In this document: one piece after another, positions 39,810-49,159 of the stretch
Position numbering within the stretch: position 1 is the stretch's first letter
Layout: each line of letters opens with the position of its first letter
Assembly: GCA_017654855.1 (NCBI GenBank)
Contig: CM030334.1
Coordinates: 2,976,001-3,040,000 of the forward strand
Source: Podospora anserina
Lineage: Eukaryota
Direction of reading: 5' to 3'
Length of the DNA: 64,000 bases
Program-made: the position numbers and the translations under genes
Notes under the pieces: model-generated
Told to the model about the DNA's origin: nothing
Databases searched by the model: none
Seen by the model: only the letters and a program-made list of their open reading frames with translations

Positions 39810-41645
39810 GTGGTGATGGGATATCCAGTCGGCGATAGTGAGCGCCGGCTATATTGGTAATACAAAGCATATATGGGAATGGGAGCGGGAGTTTTGCGTG
39901 TATAGCCTGTCGAGATTTGGGCCGTAGGTGTTGGGTTGGGGCATTTACTTGGAATTTCAAGTAGGTATGCGGGAACGGAATAAAACGATTTCCAGTGACG
40001 GTAAAGCAAGGCATAGAGAGATTTCCTGCCAGCTACACGTTATAGAGTCAAAAGATAGAACTAATACAGGCTTGACGGCGTGAACATTTCAGGGCATCGG
40101 ATCTCTCTGCTAAGGATGCTTGATTGTACTCTGCGGATGACATTGCATGTGTTGTGTTCAAAAAGTCAGACATATTGATCTTGTCCCCCGCTCACGTGAA
40201 AGGCTGAGCTGAGACGTGGGTGCTGAAGAGACACGAGGCGGCCCGGCACAAACCAGGGGGTTGGCGTGCATTTTCGGTTAGGAATAAGAGAGTGACGTCA
40301 ACGGCGCTGCAGCTACCAGACGACTTTAAACCTAACGGCAGCCGATGTCCCACGACGACTCGGGCTCTCTGGAGAGGAAAGAAAAATGGCCCTGTCCTAT
40401 GGGGGGTGGCGGGTGTAAGTGATATCTACATTAGCAAACCCTAGTGTAGGATATTATCACACTATGCATGGCATCTGCCCTACTATGCTTGGGCGCGCAT
40501 CCGGGCCAAGGCAAAAGTTCGCGCGCCTGTTCCGGATCCGTAATTTGTTTCTGCGTTAAAAAAGCACAAGCGCAGAAAGAGGGGCAAGCGATTGAGCCAC
40601 AAGCTACACGGGCACCGAACAGATGGATTTGGAGCCCGCTCGCTGGGGAAATGGGAAAACTTGGAAATCCGACCACACAGCAAACCCACTTCGTCCTGAT
40701 TACGGTTTCTGGTATTGCCCATTCCATCCCGGCCATCTCTCCATTCAACCTACCACCAGCACCTACCTATCTTATCCCACATTCCCCTATCCACACTCAC
40801 ACACACACAAACAACTTGCTGCTGCCCGTGGTGTGCTGCTGCTGTGTGATTTGTGTGTGGTCGCCTCGAGTGGTTTTTGTTTCCTACTCGACTGTTCCAA
40901 ATTTGGACCCGCCCTGCCGCCACCCACTCACTGTCGGGCCCGGGGTGCCGTTTCTCTTTCTTGGACTTGCGTTGGGGTTTACTTGGCAGATTTCCTCCTG
41001 ACCGTTCCGTCCTGCCCATCGTCTGCAGCTGGCCCAATCCTGAGATCTATCTGACCGTATTTGACCATCCTGCACCACCAGACCGATGAACCCGCACTAA
41101 TTTGTGACCACCTAGGTACTCGAGCTCACCTCAGCCTTTGGTGTTCCTTTTTACCTACAAGTGCCGTCTGATACCCCATACCTATAACTATACCTACCTA
41201 TACCTATACCCTAGCCGGTGTAGCTGTTTACCACTCAGCAGTCACCGGTTCACCGAGTTGTGATAACTCTCTGGCCGCCTAAACTCCCGCCACAGCTTCG
41301 CGATATCTGACCACCCGCCCCCGCGCTTTTCCCGGCACTTCCCTCGCAACTTGAAATCCAGCCACATTTCCGGCGCTGGCCGCTCGATACCGCGCACGAA
41401 GGAAACTCGAGATATCTCGTTGCTGCAACGCTGAAAAATTTGGATCGAGTTTCGTGGACTCGACTCAAGGACCCGCTTTGTCTCTGCCATTCGTTCGCCC
41501 CCGCTTGCCGACATCCGTTCCCCTCTCCAGCATCAACAGCTTCGAGGCCATGAGCTGAACGGAATATGACGACCTTCGCGACCACCCCTGCCCGACGAGC
41601 CTGTGATCCCTGAGTCCGCGGGGCTTTGTTCGAGTTTCCGCGACT

Positions 41646-44600
41646 ATGGATACCGCCGCGAGGCTGCTCGACGAGCAGCTCGAGTCCCCGGCCCGCCTCT
41701 TCGAGAGGCTGCATCAGATTTCTGGCTATGTTTGGGACGACTCAAGGCCACCATTTCATTCAACCTACGATAATTGGCACATATATGGGACGAGATTTGT
41801 TTCGCCGTTTTCCAGCGGGGGGGCTGTTCCGACATCACCGGCGCCTCACAACAGTCCAGCAAGCCAGCCGGGCGTTGCCGGTTTCACCCTACCTCCCGCG
41901 CATCGACCGTCCTCCCGCGACCACCGCCCATCGACATCGTCTCAGCTTAGCGAAGTCGGCAGCGAACGTTCCGCCACCTCTCTCCCAGTAATCCCGCCCA
42001 CTGGGTCCGATGTCCCGGTGATAGAAGAGCCGGTAGTGGCTCGGGTGTCATATCACGTACTACGAGAGGAGAGGACTTTTCATATTTTTAAAAGCTTGAT
42101 CGCACACACCGATTCGAGTGCCGAACGCGAGCGGATAGTAAAACCGCTCGACATAATTCGACTTCCAGCTTTACCAGGAGATAGAGGGGCCGTCATTGTC
42201 ACAGTCTATGAGGATCCCGGGCCCAACTACCTGTGGGATGTCTTGGATTTAGGACCTGCTTTTTATTATGCGAAGAAGCATGGAGATGGGTGGGAGCCTT
42301 CCCGTCCTGGGCACACTGGGCACAAACTAGCCCCTCCCATCAGCTTACAGCACTTTTTGGATTTTGCCATTGGGTCGGCGCAAAGTCTGGAAATGATCCA
42401 TCATGGGCAAGGCACGATTCACGGCGAAATACGTGGCGACACATTCCACTATAATGTCGAAACAAATAAGGTGAAGCTGGTGTGCCTTGGCTCAGGGTTG
42501 AGATCATTTGAGCATGGACTCACCAGCACCGGTTGGTCGGCCTTATCAAGAGAACTAGGCGCAAAGCACAAGCTGCAATACATCAGTCCCGAACAAACCG
42601 GACGGATGCCGGCCGAACCGGATACCCGGACAGACATATACTCGTTAGGTGCTCTGTTCTGGAGCCTTCTTACCCAACATCCCGTATTTCACGGAGAATC
42701 CCCCCTCGACGTTGTACAAGGCGTGCTCAGTCGCAGGATACCCAGCATTTCAACATTCCGAATAGATGTCCCCGAGGTGATTGGGCGTATCATCCAGAAG
42801 TGCACCGCAAAAAATGTTAATGACAGGTACTATTCCGCCAGCGGTCTTCGGCATGACCTGACCTGGGTCAAGAAGTTGCTTGGGGTGGGAGATTTACAAG
42901 CTTTGAAGGACATGAAAATCGGCACCAACGACGTCTCGTCCTTTTTTAGACTGCCATCATCGATGATTGGACGGGAGCGGGAACGGGCCGAGCTCCTCAA
43001 AGTAATCGATAGAGTGGCCAAGAGACACAGTCTGGCTCTGAATGGTGCTGCCGCACATCGCCAGTCTGATGGCTCAAACGTATCGACCGAGGTGGACGCT
43101 GCCGATGTTTCGAGTGATGGAGCCAGCTCTGCCGAAGGGACGAACCGCTTTGGGACCTCAGTTACAAACAAGGATCGACGGAGCAGTCTTTATCACTCTG
43201 CTGTGGGCGTCGATTCCGTGGGCGCCTACACAGAGGTCAACTCGTCTGGGGCCGTGAGACCACCCCGGCCGTGGGATCGGCAACACAGCGTGTCTCTAAA
43301 AGAATCGGTCCAGAGCGCGGAAGCAAGCACGTCAGAACCTTCCTGGCGGAGTGCCGCGGTGGCAACCAACGGGACCGACTCTTCAGCGGCTAGCATATCC
43401 CGACCACTCGGCCCTGCAAAATATCGGAAGCAAGGCCAGTGTGAGATTGTGATGATCGAAGGTGCAGGTGGGCTCGGCAAGACCTGTCTGGTTCAGTCCG
43501 TTCTGGTGGATGCCCGCAGAATGGGCTATTGCGCAACAGCCAAGTTCGACACTGCAAGGAGGACGGCCTACGGGCCCCTCATCAAGCTGTTGTCTTCCCT
43601 TTTCCGCCAAGTCTGGGGGGAGAGGAACACAGATACCCCGTTTCATCAGGCTTTGAAGCAATCCGTCCGTCCCACATGGCCCACATTGCACAAGGTGCTA
43701 GGTCTTCCTGAGCATATGCTCCCACGTCTAGATACGCCCCTTGGGAGATCATCTTCCAGTCCTCAGCCTCCGAAATCTAACAACTTGAGGAGGCGACCTT
43801 CTTCGCCAGAATTCTCTGGCGCTTCTTCAAAACTGGGAGCTTCCTCGGCTTCTTCCTCGGCCCAAAGCACCCAAGAATTCCTTCGAGGCGGCTCAACTAC
43901 CAAAGTAAACCGTCTCGCCAACATCTTCCTCGACGTTTTGCGACTATTCACACGCCACAAGTTTATCTGTTTCTGTTTGGACGACCTTCACTATGCGGAC
44001 GACGAGAGTTTGGAGCTCATCACGCAGATTGTCAGTGCCAAACTGCAGATGGTGCTCATAATCACTTACCGTCCAGACGAAATGTCTCCCGAAAAGCTAT
44101 ATACAATAACAAATCCGCCAAAGTCCGAGGATCACCTTCGGGCTTGTTACCCCATAACCACCAAAATCACGCTGGATCCACTTAGCGAGGAAGAAATTCG
44201 AGAGTATGTCTCGACAACGCTCTCGTTACCTAAAGATCAGGTCGTCTCGCTAGCTCTCGTTCTCCAGTCAAAAACAGCAGGAAACCCCTTTTATATGAGG
44301 GAGATGCTCAGTGCTGGTCACCGCAAGAAGTGTATCTGGTATGACTACACTGAGGGCCGGTGGAAGTTTGACCTGGATCGGCTGTTTGAGCACTTCCGTG
44401 GGGAGCAAGACTACGACGTGCTTGATACAGCATTTATTACCCGTCGTCTGGGAGAGCTACCACAGGAATCGAGATCAATCCTGGCCTGGGCTGCTCTCAT
44501 TGGGCAGACGTTTTCCCTCGACCTTATCGAAAAGTTGATGGAAGGCGAGTTCTACTATACCGACGACAACCAAGACGGGAGTGATGACTGCGCCATCCTT

Positions 44601-47600
44601 CCGCATGGGAAGCAGGACATCTTTGCAGGGCTGGAAGCTGCCATCCAGGCGTACATCATCATCCCAGGAGACCGGGATGACCAGTTCCGCTTCGCTCACG
44701 ACAGATATATCCAGGCTGCGTCTGCGCTCAGAGAGTGCAACTCGCTCAAGATGCACTTCGTCATTGCTCGCACGCTCCTCGCGCATTTCCCCAAATCCCA
44801 AGAAAACACGGCTTCCCATATTTGCGAATCAATCGAAGTCATCAAAAAGCGAATATCGGAAAGGGCACCGTTCAGAAAGGTCTTGATGGAGCGGGCAGGA
44901 GAGGCGGTCGAGAGCGGCGCGCGACCCACAGCGGCAAAGTATTACAGCAATGCTCTAGCCCTGCTGCAGTCGGACCCATGGAATGACGATGCGCCGGATG
45001 TGTCGTATGAGGAAACACTCCAGCTACATCGTCGGGCTGCTGAGTGCTTTTTGTACATGGGCCGTCCCCCCTCGGCAAACATGCTTCTGCAGACAATGAT
45101 TGAGAACGCAAGGTCACCGCTTGACAAGACTCCTGCTTGGGTGCTGCAGTCGAGAATTTTTGCTCAGAGCGGTGACTCTGCCCAGGCCTTGACGTCGTTG
45201 CGGCAGTGTTTGCGGGCGTTTGGCGTCAATGTGGACGAATGTCCCACCATGAAGAAATGCGACGAGCAGTTTGAGAAGCTGTCAGTCAAGATTCAAAATA
45301 TGGACCGTCAAGACGTCATGAATCCACTAGCGTCAAGCGATCCTCCACCCGAATCTCTGGTATCCCTAGGAGCCGTGTTGGCCGAGACAACAAGTGCTGG
45401 CTGGTGGAGCGATTGCGTCGTGTTCTACCAGCTTGCCCTGTTGATGGTCGAGACTCACTTTACCAAGGGTCCCTATCCGCAGTCGGGCATGGCGTTTTTG
45501 CACATGTCCATGATTGCACTCTCTCGGTTCAACATGGTAGATTTTGCGCAATCTCTGGCGAGCATCTGTTTTGATTTATTACAAAAATCATCGGACCCAT
45601 TTTCCTTGGTCCGGGGCTACATGATCTACGCCAACTTCATCGGCAACATTCAAGACCTCACCGGGGCCACTGTGGAGCAGCTGGAAGCCAACGTGCTGGC
45701 GGCAGCTCCCTTGGGAGATAGAGTCTCCGTCATTCTTAGCTTTGGGCTTCTTGCTCTGCTCAAGTTCTTTGCCAGTCAGGACTGTGCCGAACTCGAGGTT
45801 TACTGCCAGTTTGCCTGCGACGACATCCCCAGCTGGCACCTCGACACAAAGGGCGGCACGCTTCTGATAAGTGTACGCCAGCTTTGCCGCGCTCTGCAGG
45901 GAAAAACCCGAGCATCTCAACCGCTTGAGGTTATGAACGATGATCAGCACGACGCTTCAACCTACAAGAACTGGCTGAATACGCACACCAACAATGGCGG
46001 CAGGTCGCTCCTACTCTACGAGACAATGGAGATCGTACCGCTCTTCCTCTACGGACACTACGGGCGAGCCATCGAAATTGGAAAGGCGTGCTTGGAACAG
46101 GCGGAACTTTTGTGGTCCGCTCGAAACACCAGGCTAGCCATGTTCTTTTACGGCTTGGCTCTGGCCGGCACGGTGCTCCGGGAACAGCAGGACCCTCGCG
46201 AGCCACCAAAGGGGGACCCCAAGGTTCGACGTGATGAGGCGATTCGCAAGGTGGAAGAGCTCAACCGGAAGATCAAGGATTGGAAGGCTGTTCACAATGT
46301 CAACTATCTTGCCTGGTCTAAGCTCCTTGATGCTCAGGTCTCGGAGATGCTGGGCAATCATGGGATAGCCATTCGACAATACGAGGAGGCGCTCGACCAC
46401 GCGTCGGAGCATGGTTTTGTGTTTGAGGAGGCACTTGGAAACTACCTGATGGCCAACATCTTCATTAGGAATGCTGCAAGACGGTCGGCCAGGTCAGCCC
46501 TTCGAGATGCTGTTAGTCTGTACCGCCAGTTTGGTGCTACGGGCATTGCGGACCTCATTGAGACTGAGCACAGTATTCTTCTACATGGGCCGGCTGGCAA
46601 CCTTCGAACGTGTGATGCCGGGGTTCAGACGGACTTCTTCGGCGATACAGCGTCGGTTCAGTACCGTGGTGTCGACACTGAGGAGTCGCAGCAGTCGACG
46701 CGTGCGGCGGTGGCGGCGCTCAAGGGGGAGCGGATGATGGCGTGGAGAGGGTCCATGCAGCCAGAGGCGGGGGCCGGTCTGCCTGCGCTTGATATGATCG
46801 ATTTGCATGGCATTCTCACCTCTTCACAGGCCATCTCTTCGGTGTTGAGGGTTGATGAGCTTCTCCGGACTATGTGCTCTGTGATCTTGCAGGCTTGCAG
46901 CGGGTCTGCGACGTTTGCTGCTATTATTGTTCAGGATGAGGGCAGTGTAGATTGGTGCGTGGCTGCAAGTGGTGATTCAGAGAATGGTGCTACGGCTCAT
47001 ATTCCGGGTATTCCGCTCAGCGGCACCGATCTTGTGCCTGAGAACGTTATATTGTACTGCACTCGACTGCGAGAGAAGGTCTTCCTCCAGGATTTGGTCA
47101 ATGACGAGAGGTTTGGCAACGTCAGTGACCAGTGGTTACGCAAGAACCCAAACAGCAAGGCTGTCATTGCTGTTCCTATTCGTCATGGGAATAGCAAGCC
47201 TCTGTTGGGGGTGCTCTATCTCGAAGGCCTCCCTGGATCGTTCACAGATCGCAACGTTACTGTGCTGGAGCTTCTTGTCGGACAAATTAGCATCAGCTAC
47301 TCCAATGCCTTGTCCATGAAGTCTGTGGAGAGGGTCTCGGCTGAGAATATCTCCATGGTTGAGCTGCAGAAACAGGCTTTGGCGACAGCGATCGAGGCTG
47401 AGGCCAAGGCCAAGAATGCTGAAGCAGAGGCCATTCGCAATGTCAAGCTTGCTGAGGAAGCCACAAAGGCCAAGTCAATATTCCTTGCCAACGTCTCTCA
47501 CGAGCTGCGCACGCCACTCAATGGTGTCATTGGCAACTCGGAACTTCTTCGTGACAGCGGCCTCAACAGAGAGCAGATGGAGATGGCGGACTCCATCAGA

Positions 47601-48968
47601 GTATCGGCAGATTTATTGCTCACGGTTATCAACGACATCCTCGACTTTTCACGCATGGAAGCGGACAAGATGAAGCTGTACATTATCGCCTTCAACCCGG
47701 AGGAGATGGTCCGAGAAGTGGTACGAGCAGTCTCTTACAGCAACCGGGAGAAGACGTCCAAAAAGAACGTTAAGATTGTCCAAGACATCAATCTCCCGCC
47801 TATGCTCATCTACGGAGACCCGATACGTCTGCACCAAGTACTCGGCAACCTGATAGGAAACAGTTTGAAGTTCACCGAGGACGGGTCCATCACCATCGGC
47901 GCTCGGATCGACGAGGAGACTCCTGACAAGGCCACCTTGACGTTCTGGGTCAAGGACACGGGCATTGGTATCTCCCAGCAGCACCTCGAAAACCTGTTCC
48001 AGCCCTTCAGCCAAGCAGACGCCAGCACAGCGAGAAAGTATGGCGGTAGCGGTCTTGGGTTGAGTATCTGCAAATCCTTGATCGAGACGATGATGGAAGG
48101 CACGATCCAGCTCGAAAGCGAAGAAAACGTCGGCACCACTGCCTGGTTCACGGTTACTTTTGAGAAAGCCAAGCCAGAGGTGGTGGCGGGCGACGAGCAA
48201 GCTCTTGCCAATGGTGACGACGGCCTGCTCCCGGTTGAATCCGCCTACCGGCAACAACAATCAAACTCTGAAAACTCGTCCGACAGCACCACACTGACAG
48301 GCGGTTTCCAACCTTCCTCCTCCCACCCTCCTCTGCCCCCGGCCCCACCAAACCTAACCCAGATCCCTAAAAATGAGCTGAGGATCTGCATAGCGGAAGA
48401 CAACGCCATCAACGCCAAGATTGCGATGCAGTACATGCAACGCTTGGGTTACCCAAACGTGGACACGTATGAGAACGGCCTCAAGGCGGTGGAGGGGTTG
48501 AGGGAGAAGGCGAAGGAGGGGAGGCCGTATCACATCATCCTGATGGACGTGCAGATGCCTGTGCTGGACGGGTACGAGGCGACGAAGCTGCTGAGGACGG
48601 ACGAGCTGGAGAGCGTGAGGAAGGTGCTGGTCATTGCGATGACGGCGAGCGCGATCCAGGGGGATAGGGAGAAGTGTTTGGCGGCGGGGATGAATGATTA
48701 CCTGGCGAAGCCGGTCCGGGGGGAGGTGCTGAAACGGAAGCTGGAGGCTTACCTTGGGGCGGGAGGGACTACGCCTGCTAGCGGGGGGCCTGTTAATGTT
48801 GCTTCTGCTGCGGTTGGGGGTGTAGTGGGGAATGGGGTTGAGAAGAAGAAGGTTGCGGGGGGTGAGGTGGAGGGTGAGAAAACTGTGGAGGTTGATGGTG
48901 AGCGAGATAAGACTGAGGTAAAGGGGAAGGAGGATGAGAGGGATAAGGGCGGTGGTGATGGGCATTGA
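41646..48968 (+). CDS. Group X hybrid histidine kinase (Chk1/Mak2-3 type): kinase-like, AAA, GAF, HisKA, HATPase and receiver domains; 2440 aa
   Basis: Single ORF. Kinase-like HGEIRGD and YISPEQTGR; P-loop GAGGLGKT and Walker B FCLDD; GAF GVLYLE; H-box NVSHELRTPLNG; G-boxes DTGIGI and GGSGLGL; receiver ILMDVQMP. Confidence 0.96.
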   Translation: MDTAARLLDEQLESPARLFERLHQISGYVWDDSRPPFHSTYDNWHIYGTRFVSPFSSGGAVPTSPAPHNSPASQPGVAGFTLPPAHRPSSRDHRPSTSSQLSEVGSERSATSLPVIPPTGSDVPVIEEPVVARVSYHVLREERTFHIFKSLIAHTDSSAERERIVKPLDIIRLPALPGDRGAVIVTVYEDPGPNYLWDVLDLGPAFYYAKKHGDGWEPSRPGHTGHKLAPPISLQHFLDFAIGSAQSLEMIHHGQGTIHGEIRGDTFHYNVETNKVKLVCLGSGLRSFEHGLTSTGWSALSRELGAKHKLQYISPEQTGRMPAEPDTRTDIYSLGALFWSLLTQHPVFHGESPLDVVQGVLSRRIPSISTFRIDVPEVIGRIIQKCTAKNVNDRYYSASGLRHDLTWVKKLLGVGDLQALKDMKIGTNDVSSFFRLPSSMIGRERERAELLKVIDRVAKRHSLALNGAAAHRQSDGSNVSTEVDAADVSSDGASSAEGTNRFGTSVTNKDRRSSLYHSAVGVDSVGAYTEVNSSGAVRPPRPWDRQHSVSLKESVQSAEASTSEPSWRSAAVATNGTDSSAASISRPLGPAKYRKQGQCEIVMIEGAGGLGKTCLVQSVLVDARRMGYCATAKFDTARRTAYGPLIKLLSSLFRQVWGERNTDTPFHQALKQSVRPTWPTLHKVLGLPEHMLPRLDTPLGRSSSSPQPPKSNNLRRRPSSPEFSGASSKLGASSASSSAQSTQEFLRGGSTTKVNRLANIFLDVLRLFTRHKFICFCLDDLHYADDESLELITQIVSAKLQMVLIITYRPDEMSPEKLYTITNPPKSEDHLRACYPITTKITLDPLSEEEIREYVSTTLSLPKDQVVSLALVLQSKTAGNPFYMREMLSAGHRKKCIWYDYTEGRWKFDLDRLFEHFRGEQDYDVLDTAFITRRLGELPQESRSILAWAALIGQTFSLDLIEKLMEGEFYYTDDNQDGSDDCAILPHGKQDIFAGLEAAIQAYIIIPGDRDDQFRFAHDRYIQAASALRECNSLKMHFVIARTLLAHFPKSQENTASHICESIEVIKKRISERAPFRKVLMERAGEAVESGARPTAAKYYSNALALLQSDPWNDDAPDVSYEETLQLHRRAAECFLYMGRPPSANMLLQTMIENARSPLDKTPAWVLQSRIFAQSGDSAQALTSLRQCLRAFGVNVDECPTMKKCDEQFEKLSVKIQNMDRQDVMNPLASSDPPPESLVSLGAVLAETTSAGWWSDCVVFYQLALLMVETHFTKGPYPQSGMAFLHMSMIALSRFNMVDFAQSLASICFDLLQKSSDPFSLVRGYMIYANFIGNIQDLTGATVEQLEANVLAAAPLGDRVSVILSFGLLALLKFFASQDCAELEVYCQFACDDIPSWHLDTKGGTLLISVRQLCRALQGKTRASQPLEVMNDDQHDASTYKNWLNTHTNNGGRSLLLYETMEIVPLFLYGHYGRAIEIGKACLEQAELLWSARNTRLAMFFYGLALAGTVLREQQDPREPPKGDPKVRRDEAIRKVEELNRKIKDWKAVHNVNYLAWSKLLDAQVSEMLGNHGIAIRQYEEALDHASEHGFVFEEALGNYLMANIFIRNAARRSARSALRDAVSLYRQFGATGIADLIETEHSILLHGPAGNLRTCDAGVQTDFFGDTASVQYRGVDTEESQQSTRAAVAALKGERMMAWRGSMQPEAGAGLPALDMIDLHGILTSSQAISSVLRVDELLRTMCSVILQACSGSATFAAIIVQDEGSVDWCVAASGDSENGATAHIPGIPLSGTDLVPENVILYCTRLREKVFLQDLVNDERFGNVSDQWLRKNPNSKAVIAVPIRHGNSKPLLGVLYLEGLPGSFTDRNVTVLELLVGQISISYSNALSMKSVERVSAENISMVELQKQALATAIEAEAKAKNAEAEAIRNVKLAEEATKAKSIFLANVSHELRTPLNGVIGNSELLRDSGLNREQMEMADSIRVSADLLLTVINDILDFSRMEADKMKLYIIAFNPEEMVREVVRAVSYSNREKTSKKNVKIVQDINLPPMLIYGDPIRLHQVLGNLIGNSLKFTEDGSITIGARIDEETPDKATLTFWVKDTGIGISQQHLENLFQPFSQADASTARKYGGSGLGLSICKSLIETMMEGTIQLESEENVGTTAWFTVTFEKAKPEVVAGDEQALANGDDGLLPVESAYRQQQSNSENSSDSTTLTGGFQPSSSHPPLPPAPPNLTQIPKNELRICIAEDNAINAKIAMQYMQRLGYPNVDTYENGLKAVEGLREKAKEGRPYHIILMDVQMPVLDGYEATKLLRTDELESVRKVLVIAMTASAIQGDREKCLAAGMNDYLAKPVRGEVLKRKLEAYLGAGGTTPASGGPVNVASAAVGGVVGNGVEKKKVAGGEVEGEKTVEVDGERDKTEVKGKEDERDKGGGDGH

Positions 48969-49047
48969 CTAGTGGATGTGGTCACGGTTGGGGGTTGTGT
49001 TGCGGCTGGGGTGCTGGTGGGTTTGTGGTTTGTGTATTGAAGATGTT

Positions 49048-49078
49048 TTGTTGTTGTTGTTGTTGTTGCTGTTGTTGC

Positions 49079-49159
<81 letters not shown>
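49048..49159. repeat. (TTG)~37 trinucleotide microsatellite
   Basis: TTG array with two CTG interruptions in the kinase 3' region. It creates the spurious poly-Cys and poly-Leu ORFs. Confidence 0.95.

Follow-up and report, generated by a model that had tools for sequence, protein, structure and literature searches.

A UGA CUA G stop and a hydrophobic in-frame extension at the end of a Chk1-type histidine kinase gene of Podospora anserina: a candidate readthrough site that is probably an unselected by-product

The kinase gene and its 3′ end

A stretch of 64,000 nucleotides of Podospora anserina DNA (GCA_017654855.1, contig CM030334.1, positions 2,976,001 to 3,040,000 of the forward strand), hereafter the window, contains a gene for a large hybrid histidine kinase whose stop codon stands in the context UGA CUA G and is followed by an open, hydrophobic in-frame extension. 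An earlier note on this DNA, made from the letters alone, had proposed that readthrough of this stop could attach a fraction of the kinase to a membrane. The features on which the analysis turns are given below in window coordinates.

41646..48968, + strand: coding sequence (2440 amino acids plus the TGA stop) for a hybrid histidine kinase of the Chk1/group X type, with an intron-free coding part
48744..48965, + strand: low-complexity tail after the receiver domain, consisting of a Gly/Ala/Val part and then a Glu/Lys/Asp-rich linker, and ending in GGGDGH
48966..48972, + strand: stop TGA plus CTA G (the UGA CUA G high-readthrough context), from the sequence; the base at −1 is T
48969..49040, + strand: 23-codon in-frame extension (LVDVVTVGGCVAAGVLVGLWFVY) plus a second TGA, from translation, hydropathy and transcript contigs
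49044..49159, + strand: (GTT/TGT)39 microsatellite within the 3′UTR (3′ untranslated region), period 3, 39 copies, 94% matches

The kinase gene is one stop-to-stop frame of 2453 codons on the + strand with its first ATG at 41646, and its nearest match is a Podospora protein cluster of 2440 amino acids, 99% identical and named Chk1 protein kinase. The domains AAA_16 (residues 595-798), GAF_2/GAF (1736-1884), HisKA (1942-2006), HATPase_c (2057-2172) and Response_reg (2247-2366) all lie above their Pfam cutoffs. Pkinase (246-404) is a weak match with 25.5 bits against a cutoff of 31.7 bits, a score as expected for a kinase-related domain. Group X comprises the Chk1/Mak2-type fungal hybrid histidine kinases (defined in PMC4965123, available in part), and the predicted order of kinase-related, ATPase, GAF, HisKA plus HATPase_c and receiver domains is that of the group. 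The Pfam architecture and the Chk1-named relatives agree on the assignment to group X that the earlier note had made. The receiver domain ends at residue 2366, and the tail that follows it is C-poor and fast-evolving. A literature search, to which most subscription journals and supplements were closed, found no mention of the locus name Pa_3_8500.

The last letters of the frame and those that follow are GGG CAT TGA CTA G; the TGA occupies 48966-48968, the CTA 48969-48971 and the final G position 48972. The extension, LVDVVTVGGCVAAGVLVGLWFVY, takes up 48969-49037 with 23 sense codons, and the next in-frame stop is the TGA at 49038-49040. Its last 20 residues are free of Asp, Glu, Lys, Arg and His and are preceded by a charged linker (...EKKKVAGGEVEGEKTVEVDGERDKTEVKGKEDERDKGGGDGH); the putative span holds five Gly in 20 residues and has no flanking charges. 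Over these 20 residues the Kyte-Doolittle (KD) hydropathy averages 2.07, compared with 1.23 and 1.12 in the other two frames, and it reaches 2.25 in the best window of 19 residues; the usual KD threshold for a transmembrane (TM) segment is 1.6. The stop, the open extension and the second TGA are therefore exactly as first described, the uncharged stretch of TM length after a charged linker is seen in the translation, and its hydrophobicity near the C-terminus agrees with the anchor that had been suggested, as far as hydropathy goes. No stimulatory RNA structure was found downstream of the stop (z-score −0.04 for 48960-49050). Selenocysteine decoding of the TGA at 48966 was rejected, as fungi are not known to have selenocysteine-decoding machinery.

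Composition and microsatellite phase

The extension lies in strongly biased DNA, since 85% of the bases of 48969-49040, and 91% of the following 160, are G or T. A codon made of G and T only is never a stop and specifies Gly, Val, Leu, Phe, Cys or Trp, so any frame in such a stretch looks open and greasy; all three frames of the extension give uncharged G/V/L/C/W peptides. In random sequence of the same composition 60% of the 23-codon frames stay open, and among those open frames 15% have an uncharged last 20 residues and 4.9% are as hydrophobic as the extension. It had been cautioned that 3′UTRs in this DNA are G/T-rich. That caution applies to the kinase gene, where the G+T fraction of the 100 nucleotides after the stop is 0.87, but is not generally valid, the fraction being 0.37-0.72 at the other 23 ORF ends of the window.

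Immediately downstream of the second stop comes the (GTT)39 array, which shares the phase of the kinase frame and would read in it as poly-Val. GT dinucleotides are distributed over the three codon phases as 8/3/3 in the extension and as 35/0/0 in the array, the dominant phase being shared. The hydrophobicity of the extension is thus largely explained by its 85% G+T and by its phase identity with (GTT)39. The Val-rich reading may be the decayed flank of the GTT array, the phase of which would match the frame of the ORF one time in three. Loss of both stops would append a poly-Val run from the array to the protein.

In composition, the linker as annotated and the extension together make up a single unusual block: C occupies the third codon position at a frequency of 0.03 over the final 66 codons of the coding sequence and of 0.04 over the extension, compared with 0.31 in the body of the gene. 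This suggests that the distal tail (48768-49040) is young, repeat-derived sequence.

Transcript evidence

Contigs of four sequencing runs that were guessed to be RNA were compared with positions 40500-49046. One of these runs, X17, is shown to be RNA by its spliced 5′ leader, and X7 is an RNA run by guess only. The leader contains one further feature.

41057..41115, + strand: 59-nt GT..AG intron within the kinase mRNA's 5′ leader, absent from an X17 contig that runs from 41056 straight on to 41116

It is the removal of this intron that identifies X17 as RNA. Downstream of it, the X17 contig is colinear with the genome over 41116-48763, and another X17 contig takes in 48854-49046 and extends further. 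The X7 contig spans 41108-49046 without a gap and is likewise colinear with the genome, and an X16 contig reaches 48935. All sampled words of 48000-49046 are present in 15 of the 24 listed runs, and 86-90% of them in five more; given this and the colinear X7 and X17 contigs, the stop is not an assembly slip. No splice joint near the stop was found in the contigs of the four RNA-type runs, although contigs can miss minor forms. The main transcript keeps the TGA at 48966 and has the extension inside its 3′UTR; the retention of both in the mRNA, which the proposed readthrough presupposes, holds in the X7 (41108-49046) and X17 (48854-49046) contigs. None of the 24 listed runs is recorded as RNA or labelled as ribosome profiling. 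No ribosome profiling study of P. anserina was found in a literature search without most subscription journals.

The contig ends at 48763 (X17), 48862 (X19) and 48935 (X16) do not coincide and are given no meaning. One X17 contig has, before 48854, 28 letters that match nothing in the window (no matches with up to three mismatches), and there is no canonical splice dinucleotide at the break; this loose end is probably an assembly chimera. In the 5′ leader, an X7 contig ends exactly at 41056, the 5′ edge of the intron. Two single-base mismatches in the leader are probably strain differences: at 41159 contigs of X7 and X17 have G where the window has A, and at 41238 those of X7, X16 and X17 have C in place of G.

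Protein ends of relatives

Orthologues were compared at the protein level only. Two close relatives have no stop at the point where the window's kinase and others end after GGGH: the Apiosordaria backusii protein continues and ends in ...ANKDKNGVGLVVWFVY, and that of Triangularia verruculosa in ...DTPAGAVGLVVMW. In a quick tree both branch outside the clade (Triangularia setosa, (Cercophora samala, Podospora)), with SH-aLRT support of 99-100; their own basal order is unsettled. The end of the T. verruculosa protein is AGAVGLVVMW, so that WFVY, the last four residues of the window's extension, is not kept. The hydrophobic ends of the two proteins are about 10 residues long, below TM length. The A. 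backusii model is 46 residues shorter and has no charged linker.

A conserved span of TM length was not found, either in these two ends or among 120 orthologue models. A KD value of 1.6 is reached within the last 60 residues by just two of the 120, and neither is read as a TM helix, one being an Ala-rich tail and the other apparently a translated intron. When the extension is aligned locally with the last 40 residues of each of 133 orthologues, the score is 33 for A. backusii and 31 and 29 for G/V-rich tails that we take as unrelated. A metagenome scan with the receiver domain plus tail gave 80 loci, all of more distant fungi and the best at 75% identity, and none of the seven translated (L001-L007) has a tail of the GGGH or of the WFVY kind. 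A protein search with the stop written as X, at short candidate lengths, returned closest fragments of 84% identity that cover the receiver domain only.

Some features of the orthologue ends stand apart from the question of the extension. In one metagenome orthologue (L001:1501-2200) the end, QVQPS, is succeeded by three in-frame stops in a row, which is the reverse of a leaky design; we read this orthologue as Chaetomiaceae-like, its predicted end matching that of model P0045. In many models (P0037, P0048, P0054, P0095 and P0119, for example) the receiver domain is followed by only a short end, ...YLG(G)QVS..., which looks like a translated 5′ splice site (CAG|GTnAGy); at the corresponding position the window's gene lacks a GT. 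Models of Neurospora, Fusarium and Trichoderma continue into a Ser-rich tail with the basic motif K-R-Q-P-R/K-K-L-T/V-K, and ...TQTQVQG or ...TQTQVKG is the end of several models, among them some of Chaetomium and of genera related to it.

An unselected by-product as the probable explanation

We consider it probable, with appreciable room for doubt, that the extension is an unselected by-product of a fast-evolving tail and its 3′UTR, subject at most to incidental readthrough. The TGA at 48966 would then simply end a soluble Chk1-type hybrid histidine kinase, as an ordinary and conserved stop codon. A fast-evolving, C-poor and low-complexity gene end abuts a G/T-rich 3′UTR and the (GTT)39 microsatellite, and the frame in phase with GTT is the one that most resembles a membrane helix. 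The position of the stop would have shifted among close relatives, the two outgroups reading into the G/T-rich stretch and Podospora, C. samala and T. setosa stopping at GGGH. To judge from other fungi and from animals, a small share of ribosomes probably reads through UGA CUA G, and the extended molecules would most likely be hydrophobic-tailed substrates of quality control or have no selected role. Such a fate has a precedent: in the available part of bioRxiv 10.1101/2022.07.20.500724, hydrophobic C-tails are the default product of translated U-rich noncoding sequence, and in human cells BAG6 captures these tails for degradation and sometimes for membrane targeting. Our statements on the extent of readthrough, on what becomes of its product and on the absence of selection are inferred; the sequence, its composition and phase, its presence in the mRNA and the C-termini of relatives are observed.

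Several observations weigh against this explanation. A stop after GGGH is common to nine species (seven of Podospora, C. samala and T. setosa), and this is so despite many substitutions and indels in the linker before it among Podospora, C. samala and T. setosa. The annotated C-terminus of A. backusii is ...GVGLVVWFVY, and WFVY followed by a stop also ends the window's extension in the same frame; therefore the A. backusii ORF runs in-frame into homologous DNA and uses the same second stop. Given the place of the two outgroups in the quick tree, it is plausible that an in-frame hydrophobic end was ancestral and was later cut off by a stop, behind which it may have stayed open. The reading of the extension in the kinase frame is more hydrophobic than 95% of random open frames of the same composition. 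Its geometric-mean relative synonymous codon usage (1.01, compared with a median of 1.05 in the body of the gene) does not separate it from coding sequence, a test that does not discriminate because the kinase gene has little codon bias. TGA CTAG occurs at one of the 24 long-ORF ends within the window; by a rough estimate, some 15 such ORF ends would arise by chance in a whole genome. Finally, UGA CUA G is the strongest known short readthrough motif.

These points would be accounted for by selected readthrough, in which a leaky UGA has behind it a hydrophobic C-terminus retained from an ancestor, so that a few percent of the molecules carry the 23-residue tail and associate with membranes and the rest end at GGGDGH and are soluble. 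We regard this as a tentative alternative and on balance unlikely. Fungi and animals are described as using UGA CU(A)(G), a context in which termination is weak (PMC4207609, available in part), and human reporters with the UGA CUA G motif show readthrough of about 2-31% (PMC12233894, available in part). The stop and extension remain unspliced in the RNA-type contigs, and the relatives that translate into a hydrophobic end, A. backusii with the same frame and WFVY-stop and T. verruculosa, branch outside the clade that bears the stop. The best KD window stands above the usual threshold, with p of about 0.05 against random frames of like composition. Recoding is also known in P. anserina from the PaYIP3 frameshift (PMC3777964, available in part), and predicted TM helices occur in the readthrough extensions of Drosophila and Arabidopsis. 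Against selection, composition and microsatellite phase account for most of the signal, and TM length is not conserved where the tail is translated, WFVY being absent in T. verruculosa. The five Gly and the missing flanking charges do not favour a membrane span, and downstream RNA structure is lacking. The 5′ context alters readthrough up to six-fold, and U at −1, the base found here, goes with lower readthrough according to the part of PMC12233894 that was available. Multiple testing must also be considered, as such motifs are expected by chance in any genome. As to the conservation that a functional extension would call for, the protein-level comparison is divided: the shared GGGH-stop of nine species and the WFVY-stop of A. 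backusii speak for it, and the short hydrophobic ends of about 10 residues and the different end of T. verruculosa against it.

The stronger claim, that a few percent of an otherwise cytosolic oxidative-stress sensor would be held at a membrane by a true membrane-spanning tail anchor added through the leaky UGA-CUA-G, seems to us improbable.

A further alternative is that termination at the TGA is fully efficient and the extension is never made in measurable amounts, its likeness to the C-termini of relatives being DNA homology of a young 3′UTR. The unfavourable U at −1 with the up to six-fold 5′ context effect (PMC12233894) and the lack of downstream RNA structure are in its favour, and no measurement of the motif in Podospora was found in the literature searched. 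On the other hand, termination at the short motif by itself is described as weak in fungi and animals (PMC4207609), and we give complete termination little credence. Least probable by far, and hardly to be entertained, is a minor splice isoform that removes the stop as an in-frame 75-nt intron from 48898 (GTGAGC) to 48972 (TAG), joining ...KTVEVD to VDVVTVGG...WFVY: it is the only in-frame GT[AG][AC]G[TC]..AG candidate of less than 300 nt spanning the stop, the frame would then run to the TGA at 49038, and the A. backusii model is shorter by 46 residues and without the charged linker, but no such joint occurs in the four RNA-type runs, where rare variants can drop out, X7, X16 and X17 are colinear across 48898 and/or 48972, and the candidate is 78% purine with no CTRAY branch site, only a TTGAC with its A 4 nt from the AG.

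The convergent neighbour

Beyond the microsatellite lies a gene on the opposite strand.

49764-52082, − strand: 773-amino-acid frame with a HET (heterokaryon incompatibility) domain (E 5.9e-30)

This neighbour is convergent to the kinase gene, and as its stop lies at 49761-49763, the two 3′UTRs are left with about 790 nt.

Significance and comparison with known systems

The stop of the kinase gene is a well-defined candidate; recoding at it is not established. By what route signals reach the intracellular histidine kinases of fungi, and in which part of the cell these kinases lie, is described as an open question (PMC4965123, in the part available). If the membrane isoform were real, readthrough would be a new way to place part of a two-component sensor at a membrane; the phosphorelay would gain an input branch bound to the membrane, the share of which could change with the efficiency of termination, and the UGA-CUA-G class would extend beyond peroxisomal targeting in fungi. 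If the extension is a by-product, the locus is a worked example of how G/T-rich, microsatellite-flanked 3′UTRs imitate tail anchors, and scans for such anchors should discount them. P. anserina is well suited to decide between these outcomes, with its translational-accuracy and suppressor mutants (PMC13517186, available in part) and easy allele replacement.

Among group X kinases, Candida albicans Chk1 and Schizosaccharomyces pombe Mak2/Mak3 have the same order of Ser/Thr-kinase-related, AAA ATPase, GAF, HisKA, HATPase_c and receiver domains as the window's kinase. The tail after the receiver domain is different in being lineage-specific, with unrelated tails in other Sordariomycetes.

The genes known for UGA CUA (G) readthrough, namely those for fungal peroxisomal isoforms of glycolytic and other enzymes and the mammalian LDHB and MDH1, have the same stop and the same four downstream bases. 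In them, as here, the stop is kept in the mRNA and a short C-terminal extension could change localisation. In contrast to theirs, the extension in the window ends in WFVY and resembles the adjoining 3′UTR and microsatellite in composition. The end in WFVY is not a known tripeptide of the peroxisomal PTS1 type.

It had been supposed that membrane anchors added by readthrough were undescribed, which was too strong, as predicted TM helices in readthrough extensions are in print for Drosophila (eight cases; PMC3840789) and for Arabidopsis (8 of 144; PMC9293766). For a tail anchor of a fungal kinase made in this way, nothing was found in a literature search that lacked most subscription journals. 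The Drosophila and Arabidopsis cases are like the present one in that the protein is otherwise taken to be soluble and gains a hydrophobic segment of TM length only beyond its annotated stop. They differ in that those sets were chosen on ribosome-profiling evidence and include no fungal two-component kinase, whereas the window's case is known from sequence and transcript contigs.

The closest likeness to the by-product explanation is found in the tails triaged by BAG6/GET (bioRxiv 10.1101/2022.07.20.500724; Cell 2023, PMC10364623; both available in part), where a U/G-rich 3′UTR likewise encodes a hydrophobic tail by nucleotide bias. Those tails were described, in the parts available, in human cells and Caenorhabditis elegans and not in fungi, and the tail in the window differs from them in that its end is common, in-frame, to the annotated protein of a relative.

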